Source: a virus
DNA: 45,994 nucleotides
Strand: one strand, 5' to 3'
IMG/VR virus record: IMGVR_UViG_3300035698_022074
Coordinates: 64,001-109,994 of that record
Under the pieces are notes generated by a model. It ran no database searches and was not told the DNA's origin. It worked only from the letters and a program-made list of their open reading frames with translations. Shown here piece by piece: positions 7,401 through 36,584 of this stretch (the first letter of the stretch is position 1; every line of letters starts with the position of its first letter). Position numbers and translations under genes: made by a program.

Positions 7401-8389
7401 AGATTATTTTCAAGCCACTAAACTTTATTTTTGACATGTCAAGGTTTACACAGATCAACGAAAATCTTTCAAGCAGAAATAAAACTTTTACTAGACTCTT
7501 AGATGATGACTTTAAGCTCAAAAATATTGACGGAAAAGGCATTGGGCAATCATTGCTACAGTCAGACATCAAATCAGAAAAAGAATATAGCATTTTGACG
7601 CAAGAAGAGCAAGAAGAACTATTTGAAAATCACGTAGTTGACAGTATCCTTAAAACGTACTTGAAACTATTAACAGGGCTTGATTTTTCCGAATCTTCGT
7701 TTGTTGCAAACGAAGGGCAAGATGTAACGATTAGTCAAGAAATTACAGAGCTATTAACACAAATTAGCGTCACACCGTCACAATCATTTACTTCACTTCA
7801 AAAAACTGACTCTGTAAGTGGAGCACAAGGAATACTTGAGTCAATTAAACAAGGCGCTACAATTTCAAAAACTCTTACTACAGACTATGACTTTATAGCA
7901 ACAAAACCTCCTATTGGAGAAAAAGTTACAACTGGGCAGAATCCCAATACATCAAAGATAAACAAAAAGATTAAATCTGAACCTAAGAGTGCATCTGTCT
8001 CAAGCAGTGCAAAGAAGTTCCAAACGCAAAAGCAAAATGTAACACGCGTTGTGCAGTCAACAGAAGCAGCTCGACAGTTTAAGCGTTTCTTGAACTCATT
8101 GATATTTAGATCAGCAGATCAAGCAAATAAGACTATGCAGCCTAAACTATTTGAAAGAACTTTCATCCTACCTGTTGACCCTGATGATTTTATTATCGAT
8201 GAGGAGGCAACACTAAATACAGAGACAGGACGCGAAGCCTTCAACAGTCTTCTTTTAAACAGTTGTGTAATTGAAGAGAAAGACAAATTTGGAAACAGAA
8301 TCAAGAAAATTACACCAAGAAAGAAGTCAGAAGGCAGCTACGAGTTTTCTGAGATATTTGCTGTGGTTGAATTAGGAGCAAATTCATAA
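4457..8389 (+). CDS. Giant virion structural protein (1310 aa), function unknown
   Basis: Long uninterrupted ORF with TAATG overlap at its 5' end and stop directly abutting the next ATG, giving coupled synteny with the neighbouring structural genes. It contains a poly-Ser tract (SSSSSSS). Confidence 0.7.
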   Translation: MPTEKLFEVTNNSVSTQPSSKNIASSDGSITFDVNVGKKVSSFKQKVSPDADEEKIEIDSIDSVSKILLAHSLNANKPEIIAMVDFLATNHRSEKTPASRLLDTQFMARSLKTDDVSSLISDLSSDPIASIALTKATDAYNSLTKDTKRDLKLFSVIYQNLASAKKTLDIKDNTNQIAASVSKLRNSRGRSKTNSTIQPTPPGVLRTLRDILVCHLLFSDDAYESMSNTKVLSQLIIGLRSVVSNSSPRLFNEFVPSRAEDRDPVNIAKSIEASSDFSFEPKDLASFPVNNVSRRQGRSTRNPALFNPNKQSNYNSFVESLPVLEKDRIKLLITLLSKELRISAGIARLINTDIGRKFAVENSGQLIENIFGSTGEKITGEVPTDGTLSSLVRYEDPATDGVILPFETREVDDPSDNRRYLPGNTALIDSILDSAITPNLLPITRLNQRASSIASSNITMINYLMNFDSTDNTLHSERVVTEIFNVVSEISKSLGTLGSVDRTSAITTALIRAARDDSKLRHLLFKYTKEIRTGKVTVTKVVDASDENTGNEETGGTSDDPVENKNIETNTASDLGTKDYVKDLEDLVEDTKNDKPLEKFDPKDKSKGKAGANPTNKSDENSIKEAKINESTGEVEGVISSNSFPFEIEKRVMALFNSNRRGRRPDNSKLLLDVSDGDIESILNKGVEDFSSIFNAISSLTDSLTSDALTLSSRGPSSSSSSTGHKTENGATRFRKYTDDTVLMIVFEIFSAMISEFVSADFGPNPKNSTPLTISLILKQNKTIADKMTAVSSKDERQLETSSYSTLTSLLDSIFKATVLEDNITRDLVDMLYSITEGIKKKTNSAVIFFENNNNDPASQRVNEIINDETLKSALANLTPQQIALSWQSFNETLLTPDKSLISKSQITSNSQKIALDSMLRESRFEETAANNMKLMVVGLPAGTLNKLQNPIFTVGKNTELESSLADLITVKVFKRDPEFSEIIFKPLNFIFDMSRFTQINENLSSRNKTFTRLLDDDFKLKNIDGKGIGQSLLQSDIKSEKEYSILTQEEQEELFENHVVDSILKTYLKLLTGLDFSESSFVANEGQDVTISQEITELLTQISVTPSQSFTSLQKTDSVSGAQGILESIKQGATISKTLTTDYDFIATKPPIGEKVTTGQNPNTSKINKKIKSEPKSASVSSSAKKFQTQKQNVTRVVQSTEAARQFKRFLNSLIFRSADQANKTMQPKLFERTFILPVDPDDFIIDEEATLNTETGREAFNSLLLNSCVIEEKDKFGNRIKKITPRKKSEGSYEFSEIFAVVELGANS

Positions 8390-15189: not shown

Positions 15190-15218
15190 CCAAGATATGT
15201 AGAGACAGGAGTTTACAC

Positions 15219-15491
15219 ATGAAGATCAAGCTTTCACAGCTAAAGCGTATTATTAAAGAAGAGATTGAAAAATCAATCGAGCCACTTGACGAAGAAGCTT
15301 CTGATTGTCGAAGAGACTATGAGGCAGGCGGACTTACTCAAAAAGAATACGAAGCATGCTTAGCCCGTTATGGAAAGTCACTAGACAATATGGACGGCGA
15401 CAGCTATGGTGGATATGGTGGCAGACCGCGACGCTACAAGGGCGGCGTCGGAGGGCATCGTAGAATGAAGAGATCAAAGAAGATCTGGTAA
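15219..15491 (+). CDS. Small basic Gly/Tyr-rich hypothetical protein (90 aa)
   Basis: AGGAG lies 9 nt upstream of ATG 15219. The upstream extension of the listed ORF (from 15126) overlaps the resolvase gene and lacks an RBS. Confidence 0.5.
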   Translation: MKIKLSQLKRIIKEEIEKSIEPLDEEASDCRRDYEAGGLTQKEYEACLARYGKSLDNMDGDSYGGYGGRPRRYKGGVGGHRRMKRSKKIW

Positions 15492-15526
15492 TTTATAGAT
15501 TTGAATGTAACTCGTTATAATACATC

Positions 15527-16585: not shown

Positions 16586-19500
16586 ATGAAGAGCGAAAAG
16601 AAAAATGTCAGGATTGCACACTTTGCAGACATACACTGGCGTGGATTGACACGACACAAAGAGTATCGTGAAGTCTTTAGTAAGATTTTTGAAATGCTTC
16701 GTGAACAAAAACCCGATATCATTTACATTGGCGGCGATATTGTTCATAGCAAAACTCAAGGAATCTCTCCAGAGCTTATTGATGCACTTGTATGGATGTT
16801 TACAGGCTTTGCAAATATTGCTCCAACAGAAGTCATTCTTGGAAATCACGATGGTATTCTACTAAACAAAGATCGCCAAGACACAATCACTCCGATTATC
16901 ACAGCACTTAGCCATCCAAATATCAAACTCTATAAAGAGTCAGGAACGTATCCAATAGGTATTCCAGGGTTCAGCTGGAACGTTTTTTCTTGCTTCGATG
17001 AAGATAATTGGAGTAAAGTCCGCCCAAAACCTGGGGACATTAACATAGCACTATTTCACGGTGGAGTGCTTGGTTCAACTACTGATATTGACTGGCATAT
17101 TGAAGGAGAAGTTGACGTAAACTTCTTTGAAAGATTCGATTTTGCTCTACTCGGTGACATCCACAAAGTCCAGTTTCTTAACCCAAAGAAGACAGTTGCT
17201 TACTGTGGAAGCACAGTTCAACAAAACTACGGAGAGGATACAAACAAAGGGTATCTGCTTTGGGATATTAGGGACAAAGATGACTTTGATGTTAACTTTC
17301 ATAAAGTCGAAGGCCCTAAGCCGTTTGTTACAGTAAACTGGGAAGGGAATGTCCAGAAAACACTTAAGGCACTCAAAGATCTTAAAGACGGCTCAAGAGT
17401 CAGGATACGCACAAAAGAATCGATCCCGTCAGTTGAGTGGAAGCAACTGTGTAATGAACTAGAAATTCTAAAAGCACCATCAGAAGTTGTATCTAAAGAT
17501 GAACGACTTGTAGATACACAACAAATTTCAACTGAGGCTGTTACTCTCTTTAAGAACGATCTCAAAGATCCCGATGTGATTGTCAACCTACTTGAAGAGT
17601 ATTTTAAAGAGTCATCGCTCTCTGAGAAAGACTGGAACGATCTTGAGGCACTAACGAGAAGTTATGTCAAGTCAATATCACGGTCAGGTTCGTTGTCAAG
17701 AAGTCATAAGTGGTCAGTTAAGAAACTTGAGTTTGATAACACTTTCTCTTATGGCAAGGGAAACGTCATTGACTTTGACTCAATGAATGGCATAACGGGA
17801 ATCTTTGGTAGAAATGCTCGAGGTAAGTCATCAATTGTAGGTGCATTAATGTACTGTCTGTTTAACACAACAGATCGTGGTCCTATTAAAATCCTACACG
17901 TAATCAATACCAGAAAAGACTATTGCCGTGCTAAGGCAACAATACAGCAAGGTGAAAACCTGCTTAGGGTTGAGAGACAGTCTGTCAAAAACAAGAACGC
18001 AAAGGGTCACGAATCGGCTTTAACTCATCTCAATATCTTTAAGATTGATAACAATGGAAATGAGCTTGCTGATTTAAGTAAAGAGCAGAGGCGTGTAACT
18101 GAAAGGGATCTGCGTGAAAAGTTCGGCACATCAGATGATTTCTTGCTAACTTCACTCGCATCACAGGGTGAGATAAACGCATTTATCAAGCAGCGTAGCA
18201 CTGCTAGAAAGCACATGCTTACAAGGTTTTTGGGCCTTGACATATTTGAAAATCTGTTTAATCTTGCAAAAGAAGAGTCAAGAGAGATACAGACTAAAGT
18301 TAAATCTGCACCAGATCGTGATTGGGATTCATTGATTCACGAAGCAAAAAATGAAATCAAGGATTTGTCGAGTAGGGTTAACAGTATCGAAGATGAACTC
18401 TCTGAAATGAGACTCGATGAACAGAAACTGCAGATTAAACTAAGCAAGTTTGAAAACGCTGATGTTGTAACGTGTGCTGATGTTGAAAGACAGCAGACAC
18501 TTACAGATTCTGCAAAGAAGAGTCTAGAAAACCTTATCACTAGACGAAATGCAATCTTTGAGAAAATTGAAAATCTAGAAGTCAAAATCAAGAAGATCCA
18601 AGAAGTCAAAGAGTCTACTTCTATTGAAGATCTCAAAGCATCACTTAAAAATCAAAGAGCACTAGGTGCGTCTCTAGTACAAATCAAGCACTCTCATGAA
18701 AAAGAACAAACCCTCCTTAGGTCACAGTTAAGATCTGTTGCAAAGCTTAAGGACGTACCCTGTGGTGACTCTTTTCCAATGTGCAAGTTCATCAAGGACT
18801 CCCACAAAGATAAGCAAAAAATAGAAGCACAAGAAGAGAAGATTAAGGCACTTCTTGAGCATATTGAAAATGCTCAAGAACAGTTTGATCAAGTCATGAG
18901 TGAAGACCTTGAAGACAAGATTGATAAGTACGAAAAGATCATGCGAATGGAGTCAACACTTAAAATTGAATTGACGCAAAATCAAAGCAATGCTAAGTCA
19001 ATCAAAAGAGACATTGAAAGCCTTGAAAGCAAAATCACACAGAGTGAGCAAGATCTAGAAGATCTTAAATCTAAAATGGTTGACAGTGACATTGATCAAG
19101 AGCTTAATAATTTAAAGGCAAGACTCTACGAAGAGAAAAGTTTAATCTCGTCAAAGGATGCAAAGAGAATATCGTGTGCAAGTTCAATTGGACGACTTGA
19201 AGTCACACTACAAAATCTTAAGAGTGAGAAATCCAAGTATCAAAAACTTAAGCAGAAGTGGAGAATCTTTGAATACTTCATTCAGGCTGTCTCTAAGCGA
19301 GGTCTCCCTCTTCAGATAATCATGTCTCAATTGCCAGTTATTAATGCTGAAGTTTCTAAAATTCTTCAAGGCGTTGTTTCGTTTACAGTTGAGCTTGAAG
19401 CAGATCCAAATTCAAACTCAATGGATGTCTATATTAACTACGGCGACAGCAAGAGGGTCATTGAAGTAGCATCTGGAATGGAAAAGATGATCTCTTCTCT

Positions 19501-19744
19501 CGCCATTCGTGTTGCGTTAATCAACATCTCTTCTCTTCCTAAAACAGACATGCTAATTATTGACGAGGGGTTTGGTTCTCTAGATGATGTAAACGTAGAG
19601 GCATGCAATAGGCTTCTAGTCTCTCTCAAAAAGTGGTTCAAGAACATCATTATCATTACTCATGTTGACGGAGTCAAGGATGTTGTAGACAATGTTATTG
19701 ACATCACATGGGAAGGAAAGGATGCCAAGGTTGTTTACGAATAA
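16586..19744 (+). CDS. Fused Mre11/SbcD-like nuclease (N-terminal) and Rad50/SbcC-like ATPase (C-terminal) in a single polypeptide
   Basis: Phosphoesterase motifs HFADIHW, GGDIVH, GNHD, FHGG and GDIH are present. The Rad50 part has P-loop GRNARGKSS, a long coiled coil, a signature-like SGMEK, Walker B LIIDEGF and H-loop IITHV. Its C-terminus aligns with the T4 gp46 C-terminus. ATG 16586 has AAAGG 10 nt upstream, and the listed GTG 16577 is an alternative start. Confidence 0.85.
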   Translation: MKSEKKNVRIAHFADIHWRGLTRHKEYREVFSKIFEMLREQKPDIIYIGGDIVHSKTQGISPELIDALVWMFTGFANIAPTEVILGNHDGILLNKDRQDTITPIITALSHPNIKLYKESGTYPIGIPGFSWNVFSCFDEDNWSKVRPKPGDINIALFHGGVLGSTTDIDWHIEGEVDVNFFERFDFALLGDIHKVQFLNPKKTVAYCGSTVQQNYGEDTNKGYLLWDIRDKDDFDVNFHKVEGPKPFVTVNWEGNVQKTLKALKDLKDGSRVRIRTKESIPSVEWKQLCNELEILKAPSEVVSKDERLVDTQQISTEAVTLFKNDLKDPDVIVNLLEEYFKESSLSEKDWNDLEALTRSYVKSISRSGSLSRSHKWSVKKLEFDNTFSYGKGNVIDFDSMNGITGIFGRNARGKSSIVGALMYCLFNTTDRGPIKILHVINTRKDYCRAKATIQQGENLLRVERQSVKNKNAKGHESALTHLNIFKIDNNGNELADLSKEQRRVTERDLREKFGTSDDFLLTSLASQGEINAFIKQRSTARKHMLTRFLGLDIFENLFNLAKEESREIQTKVKSAPDRDWDSLIHEAKNEIKDLSSRVNSIEDELSEMRLDEQKLQIKLSKFENADVVTCADVERQQTLTDSAKKSLENLITRRNAIFEKIENLEVKIKKIQEVKESTSIEDLKASLKNQRALGASLVQIKHSHEKEQTLLRSQLRSVAKLKDVPCGDSFPMCKFIKDSHKDKQKIEAQEEKIKALLEHIENAQEQFDQVMSEDLEDKIDKYEKIMRMESTLKIELTQNQSNAKSIKRDIESLESKITQSEQDLEDLKSKMVDSDIDQELNNLKARLYEEKSLISSKDAKRISCASSIGRLEVTLQNLKSEKSKYQKLKQKWRIFEYFIQAVSKRGLPLQIIMSQLPVINAEVSKILQGVVSFTVELEADPNSNSMDVYINYGDSKRVIEVASGMEKMISSLAIRVALINISSLPKTDMLIIDEGFGSLDDVNVEACNRLLVSLKKWFKNIIIITHVDGVKDVVDNVIDITWEGKDAKVVYE

Positions 19745-22159: not shown

Positions 22160-22750
22160 ATGTTGAGAGAACTTATAAATCTTACTCTTGAGTCAATAAG
22201 TGTTTCTGACAATCTTAAAGAAAGAGGCGTCGATACTAGCAAGACACGTGTAATAGTTAGTGAAGAAGAAAGCACAGCAGTTTTCTTGCTTTACAATTCT
22301 TCGGGTCAACTAGTTGGATATCAACAATATAGGCCTGGTGCTTCTAAATCACAAAACAATGATCCTAAAGCTGGACGCTATTTTACCTTCTTAGGAGACG
22401 AAGGGAAGGGCAAGAAGATTGGTGTTTGGGGGCTGGAAACTATTACACCTTCTACACAGACAGTGTATATTGTAGAGGGAATCTTTGATGCAATTAAAAT
22501 TGCAAACTTAGGAAAAGCAGTACTTGCTGTCTTTACAAATAATCCAAAACACCTTACAAACTGGCTGTATTCACTTAGTATGAAAATTATTGCAATTTTA
22601 GACAACGATGAGAGTGAAGTAGGAAAGAAACTCGGCAGATTTGCTAGTGAGTCCTATATTACACCAGAACCCTACAAAGACTTAGGTGACATGCCTCAAA
22701 GTGAAGTTTCAAGCTTCATAAAGGAAATTGAAAGTGGCCAAAGAAGATAA
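22160..22750 (+). CDS. Primase-core (TOPRIM) paralog lacking the zinc-binding domain
   Basis: YIVEGIFD with AILDNDE (TOPRIM E...DxD), and KDLGDM, all parallel the primase at 15527 and T4 gp61 (LEGPID, VLDNEP, KDVNDM). The N-terminal MLRELINL...KERGV matches primase MLATLINS...KRRGV. RBS AAGAGG precedes ATG 22160, and the listed start at 22139 overlaps TerL. Confidence 0.7.
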   Translation: MLRELINLTLESISVSDNLKERGVDTSKTRVIVSEEESTAVFLLYNSSGQLVGYQQYRPGASKSQNNDPKAGRYFTFLGDEGKGKKIGVWGLETITPSTQTVYIVEGIFDAIKIANLGKAVLAVFTNNPKHLTNWLYSLSMKIIAILDNDESEVGKKLGRFASESYITPEPYKDLGDMPQSEVSSFIKEIESGQRR

Positions 22751-25700
22751 TCAAAATCTATTTCAGAGACTCACAACGCTGTTTCGAAGCGGTCCAGTCA
22801 TTAAGAGAAAAGTCAAAGCATTTAAAGAGCCTTCGGTCTCGTCAGCTAATCAAGTTTTTAAGAAGTCTCTGAGCACAAGTTACAGTACAGCAATGAGTGC
22901 TTACGGCACTTATGATAGAATGTCAAGATATAGTGACTATGCAGAGATGGAGTACACACCAGAAATTGCAAGTGCACTCGACATTTACTCTGAAGAGACT
23001 GTTGCTAACGATGACAAAGGTAGAGTGCTAACTGTCTATTCTGAAAACAGACAGGTTCAGAGACTACTCGAAGAGCTATTCTACGACACACTAAATGTTG
23101 AATTCAACTTGACGCCCTGGTCAAGAGACATGGTTAAACACGGCGATTTCTTCTTGTTTAATGACGTGTCGCCAGAATATGGGGTGCTTAACGTATTCCC
23201 AATTCCTGTTAACGAAATAGAAAGAGAAGAAGGGTACGATCCACAAGATCCGATGGCTGTAAGGTTTAGGTGGATCACAAACGGAAACACTATTCTCGAA
23301 AACTGGCAGATCACACACTTTAGGCTTCTGGGTAATGATGCATTCTTGCCATACGGTACATCAGTCTTAGAGTCAGCAAGAAGAATTTGGCGACAACTAA
23401 TACTCATTGAAGACGCTATGCTAGTCTATAGAATTGTTAGATCTCCAGAGCGAAGAGTCTTCTACGTTGACGTCGGAAATGTGCCACCAGAAGATGTTCC
23501 TAACTACATGGAGCAAGCTAAGACAATACTAAGAAGTAACCAAGTTGTCGACAGTCAAACAGGAAGAGTCGACTTACGATACAACCCATTACCTGTCTGG
23601 TCGAAGACACCAATTCCTCTACTTGATGGTAGAACAATTGCTATCAAAGATCTTGCAAAAGAGTTTGATGAAGGTAAAGAAAACTGGGTTTACTCAATTC
23701 AAGACGATACACAGAAGATCGTTCCAGGAAAAGTAGTTTGGTGTGGTAAGAACTATACTGCAGAGAAGTTAATTAAAGTATGGCTTGATGATGATACATG
23801 GGCCATGACAGCACCAGAGCACCCGTTTGTACTTAGGGATGGTTCTAATAAGCGAGCTGATAAACTTACGGCGGGCGATCGACTAATGCCGCTATACAGA
23901 AGACTAAGTAACAAATCTGACGGTGATTATGTTGATGATTACGAACAGGTCTACGATCCACATACAAGCAGGTTTATTTATACCCACAAGGCAATTTCAA
24001 GAACTGCGTGTATTGATCACGACAGAAAGCTTAAAAACAAAACGATCCATCACGTAAATCATAAGAAGTGGGACAATAGACCTGAAAATCTGCAGGCGAT
24101 GACATGGTTCGAGCACAAGGCACATCATGCATCTGCAAACAGAACTCAGGCACATCGCGATCTTGTTTCAATGAATAACAAGAAGTACAACAAGGGCCAA
24201 AACATGGCTAAAATGTACAATGGAAGTCTACTTCACAAGCAGCATAACGAAATCAGAAGTAAGGTTCAGTCAAGCTACTGGAATGATAAAATACACAGTC
24301 GTAATAGATGCAATAACATGTCATGGAACATACCTGCATCAATCGTAGAGTTTTCTATTCATAAGGCTCAAACAAACCCAAGGCTAACAAGAGAAAATCT
24401 CACGGAAGCCATTAGAAACAACAAAACGCTAATTGAAGATCTAGCTGTTGCTAACAGTGAAAATAGACGAGATCCTGATCTTTTTAGCTCTGCTGCAATT
24501 ATAAATGCATTCAAGCGAAATGGTGTTTGCAATAATTGGACAGAGCTCAGAGCACTTATGTCAGAAGGAGAGATTGAGTACAAGAATCACAGTGTGTCTA
24601 GAGTTGAAGAAGTCTACAAAAACGAAGATGTCTATTGCATGACCGTAGTGGGTCCGGACGGTCAAGACGACAGACACAACTTTGCAATGCAGACTATTCA
24701 AGAAGGTTCCAAGGAATCAACTCTTAATTCACTAGAAGGATTAGTTCGTCAGGACAAAAACTTAACACCATCATCGGGAAGAACGACTCTACCGTCCGGT
24801 ATCTTTGTAAAGAATTCCGTCGATGAGGATTACTTCATTCCAACTAGAGGTGGAGAAGGAGGATCAAAAATAGAGACTCTAGCAGGTGGCACAAACGTAA
24901 CTGCAATTGAAGATGTTGAGTACATCCAGAAGAAGCTATTTTCTGCGCTAAAGATTCCTAAGGCTTACTTGGGATACGATGAAGCTATCGGATCAAAGGC
25001 AACACTAAGCCAAGAAGATATTCGATTCTCAAGAACAATCAACAGAATACAAAGAACTGTCATCTCTGAGCTTAATAAGCTTGCGATTATACACTTGTAC
25101 TCAAATGGATACGAAGGTGAAGATCTTCTAGACTTTGAGCTTAATCTATGCAATCCATCAACTGTTGCGCAGCAACAGAAGCTTGAAATCTACAGAACAC
25201 GACTTGAAATAGCAGGATCCGCTCCTGAGGGTGTTGTTGACAGATATTGGATTCGAAAGAATATCATGAACCTCACAGATGATGAAATCGATCGTATCGA
25301 AAAGGGTCGCGTTGACGATAAGACATCCGATCTTAAGATTGAAGGTATCTCGCAAGAAACTAGCGGTGAATCCGACGATTTCTCTGGCGGTGGTGGAGGA
25401 GGATTTGGAGGCCTAGGCGGCGGCGGAGATTTTGGAGAAGAAGGCGAAGGAGAGCCAGGCGAGGAAGGTGAAGAACCTGCCGATGGAGAAGACGCTGGCG
25501 GAGATGAAGATGATGGAGATCTTGATGATGATCTCTTTGCATCACAAACCATAAAGGGTCTTACTCTAATAGACGAAGACGACGATGACACTGATGAAGA
25601 GTTTACTTACTCAATTAATGATGGCGATGCACCAATTAAAGCACAAGCCCAATTGGACAAAGTTCTTAAAAATAGAAAGAGAAGAAAGACTCATGGCCCA

Positions 25701-26006
25701 GAAAAGACAGGAATCCCTGATTTTAAGCGTATGGTAAATCACGAGAGACCTGGCGATTCTTTGACAGATCCTTATGATACACATCGCCTTAATCAAATAG
25801 ATCCGATGAAAGAGATTGTCGGCAGAGAAGATCCTTTTGACGCATTCCTCAATAGAAGTGTCAAACAACAAGCTAGAATATCACTATCTCTAAAGTCAAC
25901 GTTAAAATCACTTAAGAAAGAGATAAGTAAGAAGGCGCCCAGAAGTATTATTACTGAATCTGATGCTGAGGGTAATAACACGGAGAGTGAAGACACTAAT
26001 GATTAA
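22728..26006 (+). CDS. Portal protein, T4 gp20-like, carrying an about 375-aa intein-like insertion and a long acidic/Gly-rich C-terminal extension
   Basis: LILIEDAMLVYRIVRSPERRVFYVDVGNVP aligns with T4 gp20 [30 protein letters not shown]. After the insertion, DEDYFIPTRGGEGGSKIETLAGG aligns with [23 protein letters not shown]. The start is TTG 22728 or GTG 22734. Confidence 0.9.
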   Translation: MKVAKEDNQNLFQRLTTLFRSGPVIKRKVKAFKEPSVSSANQVFKKSLSTSYSTAMSAYGTYDRMSRYSDYAEMEYTPEIASALDIYSEETVANDDKGRVLTVYSENRQVQRLLEELFYDTLNVEFNLTPWSRDMVKHGDFFLFNDVSPEYGVLNVFPIPVNEIEREEGYDPQDPMAVRFRWITNGNTILENWQITHFRLLGNDAFLPYGTSVLESARRIWRQLILIEDAMLVYRIVRSPERRVFYVDVGNVPPEDVPNYMEQAKTILRSNQVVDSQTGRVDLRYNPLPVWSKTPIPLLDGRTIAIKDLAKEFDEGKENWVYSIQDDTQKIVPGKVVWCGKNYTAEKLIKVWLDDDTWAMTAPEHPFVLRDGSNKRADKLTAGDRLMPLYRRLSNKSDGDYVDDYEQVYDPHTSRFIYTHKAISRTACIDHDRKLKNKTIHHVNHKKWDNRPENLQAMTWFEHKAHHASANRTQAHRDLVSMNNKKYNKGQNMAKMYNGSLLHKQHNEIRSKVQSSYWNDKIHSRNRCNNMSWNIPASIVEFSIHKAQTNPRLTRENLTEAIRNNKTLIEDLAVANSENRRDPDLFSSAAIINAFKRNGVCNNWTELRALMSEGEIEYKNHSVSRVEEVYKNEDVYCMTVVGPDGQDDRHNFAMQTIQEGSKESTLNSLEGLVRQDKNLTPSSGRTTLPSGIFVKNSVDEDYFIPTRGGEGGSKIETLAGGTNVTAIEDVEYIQKKLFSALKIPKAYLGYDEAIGSKATLSQEDIRFSRTINRIQRTVISELNKLAIIHLYSNGYEGEDLLDFELNLCNPSTVAQQQKLEIYRTRLEIAGSAPEGVVDRYWIRKNIMNLTDDEIDRIEKGRVDDKTSDLKIEGISQETSGESDDFSGGGGGGFGGLGGGGDFGEEGEGEPGEEGEEPADGEDAGGDEDDGDLDDDLFASQTIKGLTLIDEDDDDTDEEFTYSINDGDAPIKAQAQLDKVLKNRKRRKTHGPEKTGIPDFKRMVNHERPGDSLTDPYDTHRLNQIDPMKEIVGREDPFDAFLNRSVKQQARISLSLKSTLKSLKKEISKKAPRSIITESDAEGNNTESEDTND
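23601..24728 (+). mobile_element. Intein-like Hint domain with a nested HNH homing endonuclease inside the portal gene
   Basis: Block A-like SKTPIPLLDGRTIAIKDL. Block B TAPEHPF (TxxH). HNH motif HHVNHKKWDNRPENLQAMTWFEHKAHH. Block F VYCMTVVGPDGQDDRHNF. The likely C-terminal junction is STLN followed by S. The flanking extein sequences align contiguously with T4 gp20. Confidence 0.6.
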
Positions 26007-26853
26007 GCACAATAAAAAAAGAAATGTTGGCATCATTTATGAGCTTCTTCTTAGGCATGTCTCGAGCTGCATTGTAGAAAATAAGCAGCAAGAAGCAGAT
26101 GTTGCAATGTCAATTGTCAAGCGTCATTTTAAGAAAAGCTCTGAATTATACAAGGAGTTTCGTCTATTCAATGCATTAGTGAAGACAACAGCATCGTCAC
26201 CGTCAATAGCTAATACAATCCTCTCAGAGGCTAGAGAATACGCACAGACAATAGATCAAAAGAAACTATCATCTGAAAAGACAAGTTTGATTCATAGTGT
26301 CAATCACAATCTGATCCGAGAGACATTCTATAAAAGGCATTTGCCAGAATACAGAATGTATGCGACAATTCAAATTCTTTTAAATGACTGGAGATCTCTA
26401 AACGAAAGTCGCAACTTTACTAGAATTGCTGAATTTGAAGAAAAGGTTAGAACATGGCTAATCAAAGAAAAAGTACAACAGCCTAACATTGAAAACATGA
26501 CAAATCCCGACGCTGACAAATTGGTCATTCGAATCATGTCTGAAAAGATTGACAAGAAATATCAATCGTCCCTTAACGAAGATCAGAAAAAGATTCTTCG
26601 TGCATACGTTCTATCAAGTGAAAATGAAAACAAGTCTGAGCTTAGAGAAATGCTAGAATCCGTAAGGGCAGATACATTAACGACGCTTGGCGACTACTTG
26701 ATTCGAGAAAACAATGCAGTTCTTAATGCAAAAGCAGACAGAGTTATTAACGACGTAAAGAGTGTATCAACAGACCAGATTAACGACAGTACAATCACAA
26801 GGTTCTTGACGATTTCACATCTCAATCGTACAATTACAGAGGAGGGCTTGTAA
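25999..26853 (+). CDS. Helical hypothetical protein between portal and prohead protease (possible head assembly or core protein)
   Basis: ATG 25999 overlaps the portal stop (ATGATTAA). The listed alternative start at 25963 lies inside the portal gene. Confidence 0.55.
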   Translation: MIKHNKKRNVGIIYELLLRHVSSCIVENKQQEADVAMSIVKRHFKKSSELYKEFRLFNALVKTTASSPSIANTILSEAREYAQTIDQKKLSSEKTSLIHSVNHNLIRETFYKRHLPEYRMYATIQILLNDWRSLNESRNFTRIAEFEEKVRTWLIKEKVQQPNIENMTNPDADKLVIRIMSEKIDKKYQSSLNEDQKKILRAYVLSSENENKSELREMLESVRADTLTTLGDYLIRENNAVLNAKADRVINDVKSVSTDQINDSTITRFLTISHLNRTITEEGL

Positions 26854-27461
26854 TGAGCACTGGCGTACTACTCACATCATGGACACCCTTTAACTACTCA
26901 GATGAAATGATCAGAGAATCAAGGGAAGAAAACAATGGCAAGATCATCCTCAAAGGAATCCTCCAGAAGGCAGATACTCTCAATCAAAACGGAAGAATCT
27001 ATCCGAGGGCTATTTTAGAGAGAGAAATTAGAAACTACCAGAAGTTTATCAAAGAGCGCAGAGCACTAGGCGAATGTGATCACCCTGATTCTTCTGTTGT
27101 CGAGCTCAAAAACTCATCACATATTATTCGTCGTGCCTGGATGGAGGGCGATGTAGTTTTAGGTGAAGTTGAGCTCCTAGATACACCGTCAGGGAAAATA
27201 CTTCAAAGCCTTGTGGAATCCAACGTCACGTTAGGAATTTCCTCCAGGGGCGTTGGCAGTACAAGAAGCGAAGGCGATAGACAAATCGTACAAGAAGACT
27301 TCCAGTTGATATGCTGGGATTTTGTTAGTGAGCCTTCTACACCTGGAGCATTTATGATGCGCGAAGGAAAAGAAGTCAGATCAGCAGATCTAAAGAAGCA
27401 CTTCACGACGTCTGATAGGGTTGACAGAATCTTTAACGACATACTCGGATGGGAAGAATAA
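26853..27461 (+). CDS. Prohead core protease, T4 gp21-like
   Basis: TLNQNGRIYP, GECDHP and LGISSRGVGS resemble remembered gp21 motifs (NGNGRYYP, ELDHP, LGVSSRGLG). It sits downstream of the portal as in T4. Confidence 0.75.
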   Translation: MSTGVLLTSWTPFNYSDEMIRESREENNGKIILKGILQKADTLNQNGRIYPRAILEREIRNYQKFIKERRALGECDHPDSSVVELKNSSHIIRRAWMEGDVVLGEVELLDTPSGKILQSLVESNVTLGISSRGVGSTRSEGDRQIVQEDFQLICWDFVSEPSTPGAFMMREGKEVRSADLKKHFTTSDRVDRIFNDILGWEE

Positions 27462-27462
27462 A

Positions 27463-27846
27463 ATGGCATTAGACAATCCAAGGCTTTGGATCAATAGCGC
27501 GAATGAATATCTGTTGTCAGGTGTTCCTTGGGTAACTTCTTCTGCAGTTGCGGCTGATGCGATAGAAGCAATTAATTTTCCTAAAGTGACAAAAGACGTT
27601 ACGATCAAGTGTAATTCTGGTTCTTTAGCATTTGCGTTCACAGAAAATGGATTTGATTCAGGGAACTTTTTTGACCTATCGGTCGGCGAAAGCTTTACAG
27701 GAGAGCTTAGAGTTAGAAAGGTATTTGTCAAAGGCACACTTGCGTCAGATTTTAACGTTTTAGCTGGCTTAACAAGAATTGATATGTCAGCTCTATTAGG
27801 CGCAGACGAAATAACAGGATCCAACGGTTTTGAAGGTGTTGGATAA
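27463..27846 (+). CDS. Hypothetical beta-rich head-module protein (127 aa)
   Basis: ATG 27463 lies just after the protease stop. The listed start at 27421 would overlap the protease gene. Confidence 0.5.
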   Translation: MALDNPRLWINSANEYLLSGVPWVTSSAVAADAIEAINFPKVTKDVTIKCNSGSLAFAFTENGFDSGNFFDLSVGESFTGELRVRKVFVKGTLASDFNVLAGLTRIDMSALLGADEITGSNGFEGVG

Positions 27847-27858
27847 TAGGAGGCTGAG

Positions 27859-28281
27859 TTGGCAAAAGTAACTAGAAACATGATCAAGTCGATTGTGAAA
27901 GAATGCTTAGTAGAAATAATGACAGAGGGCTTGGGACAAGATACTTCGCTTGTAGAGTCTTTACAGACAAAACCAAGACCAAAGATTAGAAGAAAAAGCA
28001 GAAGTGTAACACAGGAAGAAACAAGAAGTGTCAAGAACAGAAACTTTGACAACACAATTAAAGAGAGAGTTGGTGTATTAACTAACGACTCTGTTTTAAG
28101 TTCAATTCTCGCAGACACAGCTAGAACTACACTTCAAGAACAGATTGCCGGTGAAGCGCCAGGCAATGCTGCGCCCCAAGATTTAATATCAGACGATGCT
28201 ACAGTTTCTCAAAGTGCTGTTGATAGCTTGATTGACGACAACGCAGATCGTTGGAATCATTTAGCTTTTGATGGACAGTAA
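27859..28281 (+). CDS. Hypothetical head-module protein (possible prohead core or internal protein), TTG start
   Basis: A strong SD, TAGGAGG, lies 6 to 7 nt upstream of TTG 27859. The sequence has LxE-type motifs such as VEIMTEG. Confidence 0.5.
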   Translation: MAKVTRNMIKSIVKECLVEIMTEGLGQDTSLVESLQTKPRPKIRRKSRSVTQEETRSVKNRNFDNTIKERVGVLTNDSVLSSILADTARTTLQEQIAGEAPGNAAPQDLISDDATVSQSAVDSLIDDNADRWNHLAFDGQ

Positions 28282-28312
28282 GTTTAAAAGCGTAGTTAAA
28301 ACTACTCGTAAG

Positions 28313-28326
28313 TCGATATGTAATAG
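28313..28326 (+). promoter_or_regulatory. Recurrent intergenic motif TCGATATGTAATAG upstream of the small coiled-coil head gene
   Basis: This is the same core as at 40211 and 36571. It lies in a 75-nt intergenic region. Confidence 0.2.
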
Positions 28327-28356
28327 TGCGAACCCCCGCCAAATTGGAGTTTTACA

Positions 28357-28611
28357 ATGAGAATCAAGAAGTTGACAGCAAAGAGACTGCACAGTCTTGT
28401 TTTAGAAGAGAAAGCTAGATACAATTGCGATCTTGAGAAAGAAGCTAAGAAGACAAAGAGAGTAGAAGCTGACGGCTATGCAGATACACTTGAAAAAGAT
28501 ATCGATCACCTCGCTGCACTTAAGATTAAAGAAGCGCAGAAGAAGATCGAGCTTAAGCGGATTCAAGAGCAGAGCAATAAAATCAAGCGTCGTCTTAGAC
28601 TTAAAAGCTAA
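28357..28611 (+). CDS. Small basic coiled-coil protein (84 aa), possibly a prohead core protein
   Basis: GGAG lies upstream of the ATG. It is heptad-rich and Lys/Glu-rich. Confidence 0.5.
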   Translation: MRIKKLTAKRLHSLVLEEKARYNCDLEKEAKKTKRVEADGYADTLEKDIDHLAALKIKEAQKKIELKRIQEQSNKIKRRLRLKS

Positions 28612-28630
28612 TTTAAAGGAAAACTAATCA

Positions 28631-29101
28631 ATGCCTACACACGATCAAAAAACAGTCGATGCAGTAATTTCTGAGCGCGGTCTCGGGAAGTCTGATACTT
28701 CGACACTTCAATCAATGTTCCCTAACTCTCCGATTCACTCGGGTGAGCTTACTAGAGCAGTTGTTGAAGAGCTCGGTAATGAACTGCTTGTAGGTACTGA
28801 AGTCAACGACGGCGGTCACACCTTCGGCGTATTCAATAGAGACTACGCTGACGCTCCTGTTATGGGTGACGTTAAGATCGGTGGTGGCGGGCTTCCTGGT
28901 TCTCCTTATGCACCTGCACCAGGTTCGCCTGGTCCTGGAAGCATGAACCCGACAGACATCCCAGAGCCGCCGAGTGAATTTCCATCACCCGCAGGAACTG
29001 AGTATGGTTCTGGCGAAGGTGGATTAGCGTCACCTGATAAAACAACGGTAGCTATTGCTAAGCAGACAATTGGTGATTACGTCTTTGGTTCTTCATCATA
29101 A
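28631..29101 (+). CDS. Gly/Pro-rich hypothetical protein (156 aa)
   Basis: RBS AAAGGAAAA is upstream. It has a low-complexity GGGLPGSPYAPAPGSPGPGS segment. Confidence 0.5.
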   Translation: MPTHDQKTVDAVISERGLGKSDTSTLQSMFPNSPIHSGELTRAVVEELGNELLVGTEVNDGGHTFGVFNRDYADAPVMGDVKIGGGGLPGSPYAPAPGSPGPGSMNPTDIPEPPSEFPSPAGTEYGSGEGGLASPDKTTVAIAKQTIGDYVFGSSS

Positions 29102-29114
29102 GAAGTAGCAGCTA

Positions 29115-29720
29115 ATGAAAAATAAACTCAACGAATTCGCAGCTGCCGGCCATGATGCAAATCAGGGCGGTGGCTATGGAAGAATAGGAAAGCCGAAAGG
29201 CGCCGGAACGACCTGGCTAAAAAACACCTCTTTTCCATATGATGAAGAAGTTGAAGAGTTTGACGAAGATGAAGAAGGCGTGCTTGATGGACCTGCTATT
29301 GCTGATCGGTTTGTCAACAAGATGTCAAATCACTTTTACGGCGGATCTAAGTCAGGCGGAAGAAATCAGAAGCGAACTGACAAAAGCTCGTTTGCACACT
29401 CTTCAACTCGTGGATTAGGTGAAGCAACGGGAATGGTTCCATTCCCTAATATGTACAAAAACAGAACAGCTACAGCGGGTGGAACATCTCCGTCCGTCTA
29501 TAAGACACGCCCTGGAATGAAAGGCGGCGTCGGTTCTAAAAAAGGTTGGTCAACACGACCTCCTCCGCTAAAGCATGATGAAGACATGGATAACGCTTAC
29601 CATTTGGACGATTTTTTAACAGATGATGAGAAGGCACTCGATAAGGCTTCAAAAACGCATGATCGCCTTGTAAAAGAGTTCAAACAGCTTATTAGAAGAA
29701 TCTCCACGGAATCAAAATGA
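29115..29720 (+). CDS. Gly-rich basic hypothetical protein (201 aa), possibly a packaged core protein
   Basis: Its stop overlaps the ATG of the S21 gene (ATGA). Confidence 0.5.
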   Translation: MKNKLNEFAAAGHDANQGGGYGRIGKPKGAGTTWLKNTSFPYDEEVEEFDEDEEGVLDGPAIADRFVNKMSNHFYGGSKSGGRNQKRTDKSSFAHSSTRGLGEATGMVPFPNMYKNRTATAGGTSPSVYKTRPGMKGGVGSKKGWSTRPPPLKHDEDMDNAYHLDDFLTDDEKALDKASKTHDRLVKEFKQLIRRISTESK

Positions 29721-29938
29721 AAAAGAAACCTTCACATGTCACTGTCAAGTATGACAGAAAATACAACACAGCAGAGAAGATGATTCGTCGTTTTTTAAAG
29801 CTTTGCAAGAAAGAAAGAATTGTCGAAGAGTACAAAGACGGCAGATTTTTTAAATCTAACTCCCAAAAGAAAAGAGATAAGATTGCCAGATCAGAAAGAA
29901 GAAGAGCAAGAGAAGAAAAGAAGAGTAAGAGAAGGTAG
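29717..29938 (+). CDS. rpsU: Ribosomal protein bS21 homolog
   Basis: HVTVKYDRKYNTAEKMIRRFLKLCKKERIVEEYKDGRFFKSNSQKKRDKIARSERRRAREEKKSKRR aligns with E. coli S21 [62 protein letters not shown] (RRF, C.K, E..+..+F.K...++KR, basic tail). It is 73 aa, close to S21 (71 aa). Confidence 0.75.
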   Translation: MKKKPSHVTVKYDRKYNTAEKMIRRFLKLCKKERIVEEYKDGRFFKSNSQKKRDKIARSERRRAREEKKSKRR

Positions 29939-30003
29939 TCGATTTTGTCAACTTACAGTCTGAACGAATATGTACGTTAGTAGTCACAGGGGCAAACACA
30001 ACA

Positions 30004-31527
30004 ATGTCTGATACATCAATTTTTAACGATGCACTTCTCGATGCTAAAAAGCTTCGATCCATTGCAGAAGACAATGCAAAAAATGCACTTGTCGAAGCAA
30101 TCACACCTCGTATACGCGAGATGATAGAAAAACAACTACTTGGAGAAGACACAGATGCTAGTTCTGATGTTTTTACCGAAGTTGCTGATGAATTGCTGGG
30201 AGATAACACAGAAAATCTCTCAGAAGGTTCTAAGAGCAAAAAAGATATTCTTCTAAATGAAGAGGGTGCAAAAATTCTAGCATCTTTACTTGAAGGTCGA
30301 GACGCCGTTAAAGGGGCTGAGACTCTAGAAGGCATTAAAGAAAAGTATGACCGCGTCACTATTAAGCTGCAACTCGCTAAGGAGCTCGCAGAATCAAATA
30401 CTTCTAGAGGCGGCTACGGTAAGCAAATACTTGATCGTTTAGTAACCAAAATGCTTAGCGAATCAAAAAATTTGGAAAACGATGTAATAGGTATAGTTCG
30501 AGAGGGCTCATACGGCAATCATGCTGCAATGAGTTCTGAAATTCAAAAAGTTCGCAAGGAGATTGTTGAAATGGCTTCGCGTAAGCAGAAACTAAAAGAA
30601 AGCAACGAGGTATTTAATGTCGACCTCGCTGAACTTGGTCTAAATGAAAGTGACATTGAAGACGACATGGACATGGACGACGAAGATGACTTCGACATGG
30701 AAATGGATGATGAAGTTGAAGACGACGATATGGACGTTGAAGACGACATGGACATGGATGTAGACGATGAGGAAGGTGGCGACCTTGAGATCCCTGAAGA
30801 TCTTGCACAGCAGCTTCTTGACGTCCTACAGGGTTCCGTCGACGATGACATGGACGATGAAGAAATGGACATGGACGACGAAGATGTCGACGACATGGAC
30901 GACGAAGATGTCGACGACATGGAAGATGATGAAGAAGACGACGATGAAGTCGTTGAAATTGACGAAGCAATGCTCAAGAGAGAGCTTGCTCGCATGAGGT
31001 CTTCACTCGATGAGGGTGACGGCGTTACAGATTTCGGAGGAGCAAAGAAGGATCGTGAGGCTTTCGTCGATAGCGATGATAGTGACCTTAACGTTCATGA
31101 CACGCTCAAGAAGAAGCTTAAGAAAGAGAACCGCCAGAATCGAGTTCTTCGCAACCAGGTATCCGGATTGAAGAAGGTAACTTCTAAACTCCGTGAGCAC
31201 CTTGAACAGATGAATCTGTTCAACTCTAAGTTACTCTACGTGAATAAGCTTATGCAGAATGAATCAATTTCCAAGAGATCTCTCAAGAGTATCGTGGAAG
31301 CGGTTGATGTGGCTAAGACTTTGAGAGAAGTTAGATTGATATACAAGACTGTTAACGAATCAGCAAGTGGCAAGCGTCGTAAGACTGCTAGTTCTTTGAA
31401 TGAAGGTGGACGTCGTAGTTCCTCGTCAAGAGCCTCTAGGGGTGGCGGAAGCTCACGTACACTATCTGAAGGTTCTAACCAGACTGAACGATGGGCAACA
31501 CTTGCAGGCATCAAAAACAACAAGTAA
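30004..31527 (+). CDS. Prohead scaffolding protein (gp22-like position) with a hyper-acidic D/E/M repeat insert
   Basis: It lies immediately upstream of the MCP gene. It has coiled-coil N- and C-terminal parts and an acidic region DDMDMDDEDDFDMEMDDEVEDDDMDVEDDMDMDVDD... Confidence 0.55.
   Translation: MSDTSIFNDALLDAKKLRSIAEDNAKNALVEAITPRIREMIEKQLLGEDTDASSDVFTEVADELLGDNTENLSEGSKSKKDILLNEEGAKILASLLEGRDAVKGAETLEGIKEKYDRVTIKLQLAKELAESNTSRGGYGKQILDRLVTKMLSESKNLENDVIGIVREGSYGNHAAMSSEIQKVRKEIVEMASRKQKLKESNEVFNVDLAELGLNESDIEDDMDMDDEDDFDMEMDDEVEDDDMDVEDDMDMDVDDEEGGDLEIPEDLAQQLLDVLQGSVDDDMDDEEMDMDDEDVDDMDDEDVDDMEDDEEDDDEVVEIDEAMLKRELARMRSSLDEGDGVTDFGGAKKDREAFVDSDDSDLNVHDTLKKKLKKENRQNRVLRNQVSGLKKVTSKLREHLEQMNLFNSKLLYVNKLMQNESISKRSLKSIVEAVDVAKTLREVRLIYKTVNESASGKRRKTASSLNEGGRRSSSSRASRGGGSSRTLSEGSNQTERWATLAGIKNNK
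30874..30921 (+). repeat. Perfect 24-nt tandem duplication (GACGACGAAGATGTCGACGACATG, twice) inside the scaffold acidic region
   Basis: I read this directly in the sequence at 30874..30897 and 30898..30921. Confidence 0.8.
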
Positions 31528-31560: not shown

Positions 31561-33486
31561 ATGGGTAAAGATTTTACATTAGAGCAGCTGACTGAGGGTA
31601 TTCGCTCTCGTCACCTAAGAAATGGTGGTCAGCGATTGGTTGAGAAGTGGAGCCGTACAGGTCTTCTTCGTAACCTAGGGGAAGAGAAGCGCGAAGTTAT
31701 GTCGCGTCTCCTTGAAAACCAGGCGTCTCAGCTTCTTAGAGAAACCAGCACATTGTCAGCTGGCGGTGGTGGCGGAACAGGATCTGGCGACATCAGAGGA
31801 TTCAGTAACATTGCGTTCCCAATCGTTCGTCGTGTTTTCGGCGGTCTCGTAGCGAATGAGCTCGTCTCAATTCAGCCAATGAGCCTTCCATCTGGCCTCC
31901 TATTCTACCTTGACTACACGTATGGTACAAATGTCGGTGGTGACGCAAGTCTCCAGACTGGTGCTGAAGGCGCTGCGTCGGCAGAGACTTACCGTGCAGG
32001 TCAGTCGATTTACAACTCTCCAACAGGCAAGGGTGTTCGTTCCGGTTCACTTGCAACTGGTGGACAGTACGACCTCGTAGGTTCTACGTTCTCGAAGGTA
32101 CACGCAACAACTACTGGCAATGAGCTCGCGCTTCTTGCTTCTGGTTCTTGGGGTGTTGGACAGACGCTTACTGGTGGTGCTTTGATGCACGCAACTGGTA
32201 CAGACGGTCGTCTTACAATGTTCGACCCGCAGATTGGTACGCTAATCGAAGAAGACGCAGCAGATGGTGCTTATGACGCATCTGGCCGCTGGCAGTTCCT
32301 CGTGTTTAACCTTAACCAGGTTGGATCTGATGTTGACCTTAGTAACATCAAGGACTTCTCCGTATTCTCAGCAGCTCCATCTGCTGCAGGTCTCGCACCT
32401 CTTACAGACACCTTCCAGGGTGGCAAGAACATTCTTAACCTACGTCGTCTCAACCAGCTTGGTACGTACACAGGCGGAGTCTTCACACCTAACCCACTAG
32501 TTGGGCGTTCTGATACAGGCGCTGCGGTTCTAGTTGTCGTCTCCGGTGCTTATGCTCCGACGAAGGCTGCTAACACTACTGCTGCTGTTGGTCTCACAGG
32601 TTCTTACGCAATCGGTGCATCCCTTGATGTAGACAGTGATGCTTCAACGCTCACTATCCCAAGTTTCGAGTCTGACTTCGCGACTTCACCATCGCCACAG
32701 ATTCCTGAAATCGACATCAAGGTTGAGTCAATTGCCGTTACAACAACAACTCGTAAGCTACGTGCTCGTTGGTCTCCAGAGCTTGCTCAGGACCTCAACG
32801 CGTACCACAGCGTCGACGCAGAAGTTGAACTTACACAGATTCTTTCTGAGCAGATTGCTCTTGAGATCGACCGTGAGATCCTCAACGACCTTCTAACTGA
32901 AGCTCGTGGTGCAAACTTCTACTGGTCACGTGCTCCTGGTAAGTTCGTTAACAAGACAAATGGCGTAGTCCAGAATCTTTCTAGCACACTTGCAACAGGT
33001 CCTACATTCACCGGTAACGTCCGCGAATGGTACGAGACGCTAACTGAGACAATCATCGACGTTGCTAACCAGATTCACAGAAAGACGCTTCGAGGTTCCG
33101 CGAACTTCATCGTGACTTCACCTGACATCTGCACCATCCTTGAGTCCTCCGTGCTTTACAAGCCGCAGCTTTCAATCGATGGAATGGGACAGGTTGGCGC
33201 GCCATTCAGCATTGGTGCAGAATCCGTTGGTACACTTACTAACAGATTCACGGTCTACAAGGACCCATACTTCCCACGCCAGAAGATCCTTGTTGGTTAC
33301 AAGGGCGGTTCATACCTCGAGACTGGATACGTCTATGCTCCGTATGTCCCACTCATCGTGACACCAACAATCTTCGCTCCGGAAGACTTCACACCACGTA
33401 AAGGTGTTATGACCAGATACGGCAAGAAGATGGTACGTGCCGACTTCTACGGTACAGTTACGGTTCTCGACCTTAACATTATCTAA
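31561..33486 (+). CDS. Major capsid protein, T4 gp23-like, with an enlarged insertion domain
   Basis: PIVRRVFGGLVANELVSIQPMSLPSGLLFYL aligns with T4 gp23 GMVRRAIPNLIAFDICGVQPMNSPTGQVFAL. LRARWSPELAQDLNAYHSVDAEVELTQILSEQIALEIDREI aligns with LKAAYSIELAQDLRAVHGMDADAELSGILATEIMLEINREV. VGYKGGSYLETGYVYAPYVPL aligns with VGYKGPNEMDAGIYYAPYVAL. Confidence 0.95.
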   Translation: MGKDFTLEQLTEGIRSRHLRNGGQRLVEKWSRTGLLRNLGEEKREVMSRLLENQASQLLRETSTLSAGGGGGTGSGDIRGFSNIAFPIVRRVFGGLVANELVSIQPMSLPSGLLFYLDYTYGTNVGGDASLQTGAEGAASAETYRAGQSIYNSPTGKGVRSGSLATGGQYDLVGSTFSKVHATTTGNELALLASGSWGVGQTLTGGALMHATGTDGRLTMFDPQIGTLIEEDAADGAYDASGRWQFLVFNLNQVGSDVDLSNIKDFSVFSAAPSAAGLAPLTDTFQGGKNILNLRRLNQLGTYTGGVFTPNPLVGRSDTGAAVLVVVSGAYAPTKAANTTAAVGLTGSYAIGASLDVDSDASTLTIPSFESDFATSPSPQIPEIDIKVESIAVTTTTRKLRARWSPELAQDLNAYHSVDAEVELTQILSEQIALEIDREILNDLLTEARGANFYWSRAPGKFVNKTNGVVQNLSSTLATGPTFTGNVREWYETLTETIIDVANQIHRKTLRGSANFIVTSPDICTILESSVLYKPQLSIDGMGQVGAPFSIGAESVGTLTNRFTVYKDPYFPRQKILVGYKGGSYLETGYVYAPYVPLIVTPTIFAPEDFTPRKGVMTRYGKKMVRADFYGTVTVLDLNII

Positions 33487-33507
33487 TTCTGGCAGCACTT
33501 TAATCAA

Positions 33508-33542
33508 GGCGTCCTCTTTGCAGAGGACGCCTTTTTTGTTTT
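33508..33542 (+). terminator. Rho-independent terminator after the capsid gene
   Basis: GGCGTCCTCT ttgc AGAGGACGCC forms a perfect 10-bp GC-rich stem, followed by TTTTTTGTTTT. Confidence 0.75.
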
Positions 33543-33608
33543 CTCGATCATTGATGTCATGATACCTATACAAGGAAGTAAGTCTCAATAGAATGTATAG
33601 AGGTCTAA

Positions 33609-36570: not shown

Positions 36571-36584
36571 CGATATGTATTAAT
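36571..36584 (+). promoter_or_regulatory. Recurrent intergenic motif CGATATGTATTAAT upstream of the gp13-like gene
   Basis: This is the same core as at 40211 and 28313. Confidence 0.2.

Follow-up and report, generated by a model that had tools for sequence, protein, structure and literature searches.

Why should a phage keep a gene for a ribosomal protein among the genes that build its head, and is that gene what it appears to be? We asked this of a 45,994-nucleotide stretch of viral DNA (positions 64,001 to 109,994 of IMG/VR record IMGVR_UViG_3300035698_022074; hereafter "the window"), in which an initial annotation had placed a homolog of ribosomal protein bS21 inside a head-morphogenesis operon. 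The gene lies at 29717..29938 on the plus strand, starts with ATG and encodes a phage-type protein of 73 amino acids (aa). The protein has an isoelectric point (pI) of 10.8, with 30 lysines and arginines (41% of residues) and 10 aspartates and glutamates. Its start codon overlaps the TGA stop of an upstream 201-aa open reading frame (ORF) in an ATGA on the plus strand (29717..29720), and the translational coupling to the upstream gene that had been claimed is borne out by the sequence there. The Shine-Dalgarno (SD) sequence of the bS21 gene itself is weak (-3.5 kcal/mol), which, together with the overlap, fits re-initiation. The same overlap, or direct abutment with the upstream gene, occurs in the relatives L006, L005, L083 and L087; in the last two, the bS21 ORF that overlaps or abuts its neighbor begins with TTG or GTG. 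The ORF is a real gene and not a chance reading frame, as four other contigs bear a 99% identical copy and relatives occur at 118 viral loci. Compared with the copy on the near-identical contig L001, the window gene has three nucleotide differences, two of them synonymous and one exchanging lysine for arginine.

Judged by profile searches and a predicted fold, the ORF encodes a genuine bS21 homolog. A word-indexed protein search recovered three proteins already annotated as PF01165, namely the 99% copy and relatives at 51% and 62% identity. Using a four-sequence profile, an HMMER scan of 1.84 billion representative proteins returned 609 proteins at E ≤ 1e-3, and 39 of these make up the family alignment used here. 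Pfam Ribosomal_S21 (PF01165) was matched by 38 of the 39 at E ≤ 1e-3 (best 1.2e-14). The 39-sequence profile had 28 matches in the PDB (E ≤ 1e-3, best 1.1e-11), every one of them a bS21, and bS21 also accounted for 33 of the 34 PDB matches of the four-sequence profile. The best matches of the larger profile were gammaproteobacterial bS21 proteins, and the weakest was bS21 of F. johnsoniae (7jil_z, 6.3e-6).

The alignment has a clear signature, consisting of an N-terminal strand, E-x-M-I-R-R-F-x-K-K-x-K-K-E, Y-x-K-P-S and a basic tail. Positions F26, K31, S49 and V10 are nearly invariant, in a family whose mean column identity is only 31-33%. From the bS21 signature, the window protein carries R24 R25 F26, K31, F44 F45 K46 and S49, plus a tail rich in lysine and arginine. 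An AlphaFold2 model, computed with 77 family members, has a mean predicted local distance difference test score (pLDDT) of 91.2 and helices at residues 19-33, 35-43 and 48-72. The order of elements in the predicted model is that of bS21: an N-terminal strand, then a pair of short helices, then a long helix at the C-terminus. In the related proteins of L062, L083 and L087 (82-91 aa; near 7900-8160), a basic insertion of ~15 residues separates the N-terminal strand from the first helix.

Several results count against this identification when the protein is taken singly. Residues 15-63 align to positions 5-54 of the 55-position PF01165 profile at E 8.9e-6, and the score of 25.8 bits is just below the gathering cut-off of 27. 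TIGR00030 gives 22.3 bits, below its cut-off of 28.95. The proline of the KPS motif found in the family is replaced in the window protein (S47 N48 S49). A Foldseek search with the predicted model found nothing significant (E about 5), which we attribute to the small size of the model, and the best TM-scores (structural similarity) were still to ribosomal S21 chains. A single-sequence search of PDB sequences returned five matches, weak but all of them bS21. Neither of the two outcomes that the initial annotation had named as refuting the S21 match was thus obtained: at the family level, profile matches are significant and exclusive to S21, and the predicted structure is compatible with the S21 fold.

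To what extent is this bS21 a viral protein? We scanned for the subtype with two exact peptide motifs, EKMIRRF and KKERI, using the four-sequence alignment. The scan of one genome each for 185,579 bacterial and archaeal species yielded one confirmed locus, and that of IMG/VR yielded the 118 loci mentioned above. The one locus from the species genomes (L013; PBHR01000019.1, "MAG: Methanobacteriota archaeon isolate SP3024") is on a 19-kb contig. This is almost certainly a mis-binned phage contig, because a T4-like portal and a prohead protease are encoded upstream of its bS21. Within the limit of an exact-motif scan, the subtype looks virus-specific. A tblastn search against 50,697 phage records gave no match for the window bS21 (E ≤ 0.01) or for its relative P0003 (E ≤ 1), probably due to the low-complexity filter acting on a short query. 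No bS21 was detected among the small ORFs in the head module of Flavobacterium phage immuto, the closest isolate by major capsid protein (MCP).

The position of the gene is as distinctive as its distribution. In the window, bS21 is six genes downstream of a gp21-type prohead core protease (26853..27461, plus strand; PF03420 at 2e-25, phrog_207 at 1e-49) and two genes upstream of a gp23-type MCP (31561..33486, plus strand; PF07068 at 1.1e-76, phrog_138 at 1e-74), with TerL and portal genes further upstream. The only strong terminator of the head block, an intrinsic one with a 12-bp stem (7 GC pairs) followed by a T-run (33506..33533 or 33506..33543, plus strand), closes the block after the MCP gene, and none occurs earlier in it. 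We used tblastn of the window proteins on 80 retrieved loci. The protease was found in 69, in every case on the bS21 strand and 0.4-2.5 kb upstream; the remaining 11 loci have <1.6 kb of sequence upstream of bS21. The MCP, detected in 34 loci, was downstream of bS21 on the same strand in all of them. The gene directly before bS21 encodes a 141-144-aa protein in most marine relatives and a 200-214-aa protein in the sub-clade of the window (L062, L083, L087), and in both groups bS21 overlaps this gene (ATGA in the marine relatives) or abuts it. The order of the small genes around bS21 varies between relatives. The claim that bS21 lies between the protease side and the scaffold and MCP genes, in a co-oriented head block, is upheld by the PF03420 and PF07068 matches, the terminator and the relatives. 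On this synteny, bS21 is a fixed, co-oriented member of the head block (TerL, portal, protease, bS21, scaffold, MCP) in a large clade of aquatic T4-like myoviruses.

We also examined the translation signals of the phage. We calculated the duplex energy between the anti-SD sequence ACCUCCUUU and positions -21..-4 for 32 gene starts of the window, which holds essentially structural and packaging genes only. Energies of ≤ -4.4 kcal/mol were found at 56% of the 32 starts, compared with 13% of random positions and 9% of internal ATGs (Mann-Whitney p about 7e-10). By the same measure, the value is 71% of 21 starts in the bS21-bearing Microcystis phage Mel-JY01 and 5% in Flavobacterium phage immuto, which is without bS21 and whose host phylum largely ignores SD (PMC9976891). 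An SD and an ATG occur just downstream of bS21 in 54 of 67 distinct relatives. The initial annotation had described TTG and GTG starts with strong SD sequences among the late genes. The SD enrichment stands, as does a TTG start at 27859, where a 140-aa head-module ORF begins with AGGAGG 6 nt upstream; the other non-ATG starts mostly stem from the longest-ORF rule.

The bS21 protein itself gives a further indication. Tyr54 of F. johnsoniae bS21 stacks on the anti-SD and is kept in the bS21 of Bacteroidetes phages (PMC9723584). With the hidden Markov model alignment extended by one residue, Tyr54 would map to about R61 of the window protein. As the latter has no F, Y, W or H after residue F45, it is without an equivalent of Tyr54, and family columns 50-73 contain at most 7 aromatics among 77 sequences per column. 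Given the SD-rich starts, the lack of a Tyr54-type aromatic and the fact that F. johnsoniae bS21 is the weakest match, the phage looks adapted to an SD-using translation system. No tRNA genes that could hint at the host were found in the window.

What, then, might the protein do? We lean, with moderate confidence, toward the view that the phage bS21 is synthesized alongside the head proteins, takes up the bS21 position on the host 30S subunit and shifts initiation to the SD-led late messages of the phage. Synthesis together with the head proteins would be expected from the shared strand, a block free of terminators up to where the MCP gene ends and the ATGA-coupled translation. The protein would then bind the platform of the host 30S subunit at the bS21 site, by the 3′ tail of the 16S rRNA, where it would replace, or add to, the loosely bound host bS21. 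As a result, translation initiation would shift toward SD-rich late phage mRNAs when structural proteins are needed in bulk.

Late expression, entry into ribosomes and a role in SD pairing have parallels in other systems. Late expression is suggested by lake metatranscriptomes, in which bS21 genes of other phages are transcribed with late structural genes (PMC9723584). Entry into ribosomes may be expected by analogy with the bS21 of Pelagibacter phage HTVC008M, which enters E. coli 70S ribosomes (PMC6375957). In other systems bS21 is loosely bound and exchangeable, and is needed for the binding of natural mRNAs and for SD/anti-SD pairing (PMC6375957 and work cited there), and a similar role in pairing may apply here. 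The SD-richness of the phage genes is compatible with an initiation bias toward phage mRNAs, as already hypothesized by Mizuno 2019 (PMC6375957) and Chen 2022 (PMC9723584).

Other observations weigh against this proposal. The only phage bS21 to be tested functionally lowered the in vitro translation activity of E. coli ribosomes to about 5% (PMC6375957), and thus "boosting" is not established. Only three phages underlie the link between SD use and bS21, which is a lead and not a correlation. Moreover, a purely ribosomal role does not require strict residence among the prohead core genes, which fits a packaged protein equally well.

Packaging is the alternative that survives best, and we regard it as unlikely. 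The protein would enter the prohead core along with small core proteins, be injected with the DNA and, as soon as the next infection begins, act on host ribosomes, a possibility explicitly raised by Chen 2022 (PMC9723584). The bS21 gene is always inside the protease-to-MCP block, which in T4 encodes core and scaffold proteins, and it is translationally coupled to a head-module gene; the high pI of the product would also suit packaging. Furthermore, the 141-144-aa protein that precedes bS21 in most relatives has an N-terminus that visually resembles that of the 140-aa head-module ORF of the window: the IKSIVKECLVEIMTEG motif of the latter is similar, by eye, to MKKSDLKELIKPLVKECIHEVLIEEG of the L006 protein directly preceding bS21. 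However, the window bS21 has no recognizable T4-type N-terminal capsid-targeting peptide, and its N-terminus extends the normal bS21 strand by a short basic stretch. An I-x-E motif is present at residues 35-37, but it is within a conserved bS21 helix and thus provides no evidence of protease processing. A literature search found no virion proteome that reports bS21. That the protein is a prohead-core passenger, packaged, injected and acting before any phage gene is expressed, is rather improbable in our view. If true, the phage would arrive with its own ribosome-reprogramming subunit, and the head-module synteny would be the genomic footprint of packaging.

Another explanation, which we consider very unlikely, is that the protein is derived from bS21, has lost its ribosome binding and serves as a small, basic, nucleic-acid-binding head protein, for example neutralizing DNA charge or assisting scaffold exit. 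The virus-only distribution and fixed place among head-assembly genes could be read in this way, as could the 41% lysine or arginine content and the change from KPS to SNS in the window protein. However, the positions conserved in the viral family are those that define cellular bS21 (RRF, K31, the serine of KPS and the N-terminal strand), and a generic polycation needs neither these positions nor the full bS21 fold. In addition, a different phage bS21 does enter ribosomes (PMC6375957).

Recent capture, in which a fresh host rpsU landed in the head operon or the contig is contaminated with cellular DNA, has some precedent, as HTVC008M was inferred to have taken its bS21 from its Pelagibacter host and multiple host-to-virus transfers have been proposed (PMC6375957). 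Against this, the subtype is common in viral contigs and essentially absent from the 185,579 species genomes, phages with bS21 proteins as divergent as 41-57% identity keep the gene in the same position, and five independent contigs share the same arrangement. We consider this origin extremely improbable and effectively excluded. Chance resemblance of a small lysine- and arginine-rich ORF to the S21 profile, which compositional bias and the single-sequence scores below curated cut-offs might suggest, is likewise effectively excluded and the least credible of all, being refuted by family-profile matches exclusive to bS21 at 1e-11, the PF01165 matches of 38 of 39 relatives and a specific fold match.

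Every convincing gene in the 46-kb window reads from the plus strand. Among them, in order, are TerL, portal, prohead protease, five small ORFs, bS21, scaffold-like protein and MCP. The TerL gene (plus strand, PF03237) is upstream of that for a T4-type, intein-containing portal of 1092 aa (22728-26006, plus strand; PF07230). The portal intein, at about residues 297-642, carries an HNH endonuclease (PF14890 at 2e-10, PF13392 at 2.2e-5), an arrangement shared with contig L001. Four small head-module ORFs of 127, 140, 84 and 156 aa (27463..29101, plus strand) occupy the region between the protease and the 201-aa gene (29115..29720, plus strand). The latter is the immediate upstream neighbor of bS21, a neighbor conserved in the closest clade. 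Its product had been labeled a core protein, a name that we could not sustain given that the ORF has no Pfam or PHROG match. Homologs with 30-33% identity are encoded directly upstream of bS21 in L037, L062 and L082-L084, and L087 has a similar 200-aa ORF in this position, which tblastn at 1e-4 missed. We also considered the 201-aa protein as a relative of the 141-aa protein preceding bS21 in marine relatives, and rejected this because no relatedness was detectable. Neither the bS21 ORF nor any of its five upstream neighbors could be assigned to a PHROG.

Downstream of bS21, in the position of gp22, is a gene for an acidic, coiled-coil, scaffold-like protein of 507 aa (30004..31527, plus strand). 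This protein has no significant Pfam match; in phages immuto and Mel-JY01, the gene immediately preceding that for the MCP matches its C-terminal part. The best isolate matches of the MCP itself are those of Flavobacterium phage immuto (46%) and Microcystis phage Mel-JY01 (45%).

Where might transcription of this block begin? The motif CGATATGTA has three exact copies in the window, all on the plus strand, all in the rare intergenic gaps and 25-48 nt before a start codon. One copy (28314..28322) is in the gap before the 84-aa gene and is a candidate (late) promoter of the unit that ends with bS21; the other intergenic copies are at 36571-36579 and 40212-40220. One-mismatch copies include GAATATGTA at 29966..29974 (plus strand), in the 65 nt that separate bS21 from the scaffold-like gene, and another in a gap at 15193-15201. 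With up to one mismatch allowed, 15 copies were found where 6.5 were expected, a number reached in none of 100 shuffles. On this evidence, CGATATGTA is a candidate late-promoter motif replacing TATAAATA of T4. The window shows no enrichment of TATAAATA, the T4 late-promoter consensus (2 matches, both on the minus strand, versus 1.3 expected), or of sigma-70-like promoters.

A different motif was noted in the relatives. In 49 of 67 distinct relatives (loci L014-L093), the bS21 stop codon is followed within 25 nt by the start of CTAYTTA (usually CTATTTATA), and this in turn by an SD and the next gene; the string ctatttata also precedes several genes of Flavobacterium phage immuto (L011). CTAYTTA is probably a late promoter of the T4-like superclade; CTATTTA is not enriched in the window.

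Three other regions of the window deserve mention. At 16586-19744, one 1052-aa protein joins a Mre11-like phosphoesterase (Metallophos, residues 9-194) to an ATPase of the Rad50/SbcC-like type (residues 380-1012; AAA_23 and SbcC Walker B). T4 has two genes, gp47 and gp46, for the Mre11-like and Rad50-like functions. A 157-aa protein (37819-38292) has a sub-threshold match to the ART-PolyVal ADP-ribosyltransferase family (28.5 bits, cut-off 31.2); on L001 its neighbors were called gp13-like (neck) and, faintly, gp15-like. The 337-nt gap at 15190-15526 contains an unlisted ORF that starts near 15219 (MKIKLSQLKRIIKEE...) after AGATATGTA and an SD-like GGAG, and this is probably a real small gene.

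How does the locus compare with known systems? Among the ribosomal proteins found in viruses, phage-encoded bS21 is the most common, and Mizuno 2019 (Nat Commun 10:752, PMC6375957) reported 1310 viral genomes or contigs with bS21, about 90% of them aquatic. Chen 2022 (ISME Commun 2:31, PMC9723584) found bS21 inside the conserved TerL/portal/protease/MCP region of freshwater jumbo myophages that infect Bacteroidetes. Among 900 published bS21 phages, the prohead protease is within 10 genes in 310 and the MCP in 154, typically 2-4 genes away (PMC9723584). The initial annotation described phage S21 as reported in some phages and functionally unexplained. The latter is fair, but the former is an understatement, as both the head-gene neighborhood and late expression are already documented (PMC9723584).

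The phages of Chen 2022 resemble ours in that bS21 is a few genes from TerL, portal, protease and MCP, and late synthesis with ribosome substitution was proposed for them. However, their bS21 is on the strand opposite to the structural genes, whereas the window gene shares the strand of its structural genes, as does bS21 in 69 of 69 relatives, and starts in an ATGA overlap. Their bS21 is Flavobacteriia-like with an aromatic at the Tyr54 position, whereas the window protein has no aromatic after F45. Their genomes are 293-331 kb with 31-34% GC, in contrast to 41% GC in the window and 179.6 kb for the near-identical contig, and the SD-rich mRNAs of the window phage also set it apart from these clades.

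Pelagibacter phage HTVC008M is, likewise, an aquatic T4-like myovirus with a bS21 for which purifying selection, entry into 70S ribosomes and a hypothesis of host-bS21 replacement have been reported (PMC6375957). Its bS21 is 54% identical to that of its host and was inferred to be host-derived (PMC6375957), whereas the window subtype looks virus-specific and locked into the head module. Compared with cellular bS21 (rpsU of E. coli, Acinetobacter and Pseudomonas), the window protein has a basic N-terminal extension of 6-7 residues and SNS in place of KPS, and its gene belongs to a phage capsid operon and not to the host rpsU locus.

A parallel in an isolated phage is the T4-like Microcystis phage Mel-JY01 (PP395634), whose MCP and protease are 45% and 51% identical to those of the window. 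Its annotated RpsU (WWT39311) is encoded on the same strand, two genes after the protease and before scaffold and MCP, and the phage is SD-rich (71% of 21 starts). The two differ in that RpsU is only about 26% identical to the window protein and that a short gap, not an overlap, lies between its gene and the preceding one. The host of Mel-JY01 is a cyanobacterium.

In combination, the comparisons indicate that the locus is another instance of a published pattern, and that strand and coupling, the missing Tyr54-type aromatic and the dissimilarity to Bacteroidetes bS21, and SD-richness are variations within a known kind. Alone, it leaves the current picture of phage bS21 unchanged. It is, nonetheless, a clean example of an apparently virus-only bS21 lineage on the coding strand of a head operon, without the anti-SD clamp residue of the Bacteroidetes type and with SD-rich mRNAs. 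Together with its cultured relative Mel-JY01, which has the same layout, it provides a practical system in which to set the ideas of SD tuning and capsid packaging against each other.

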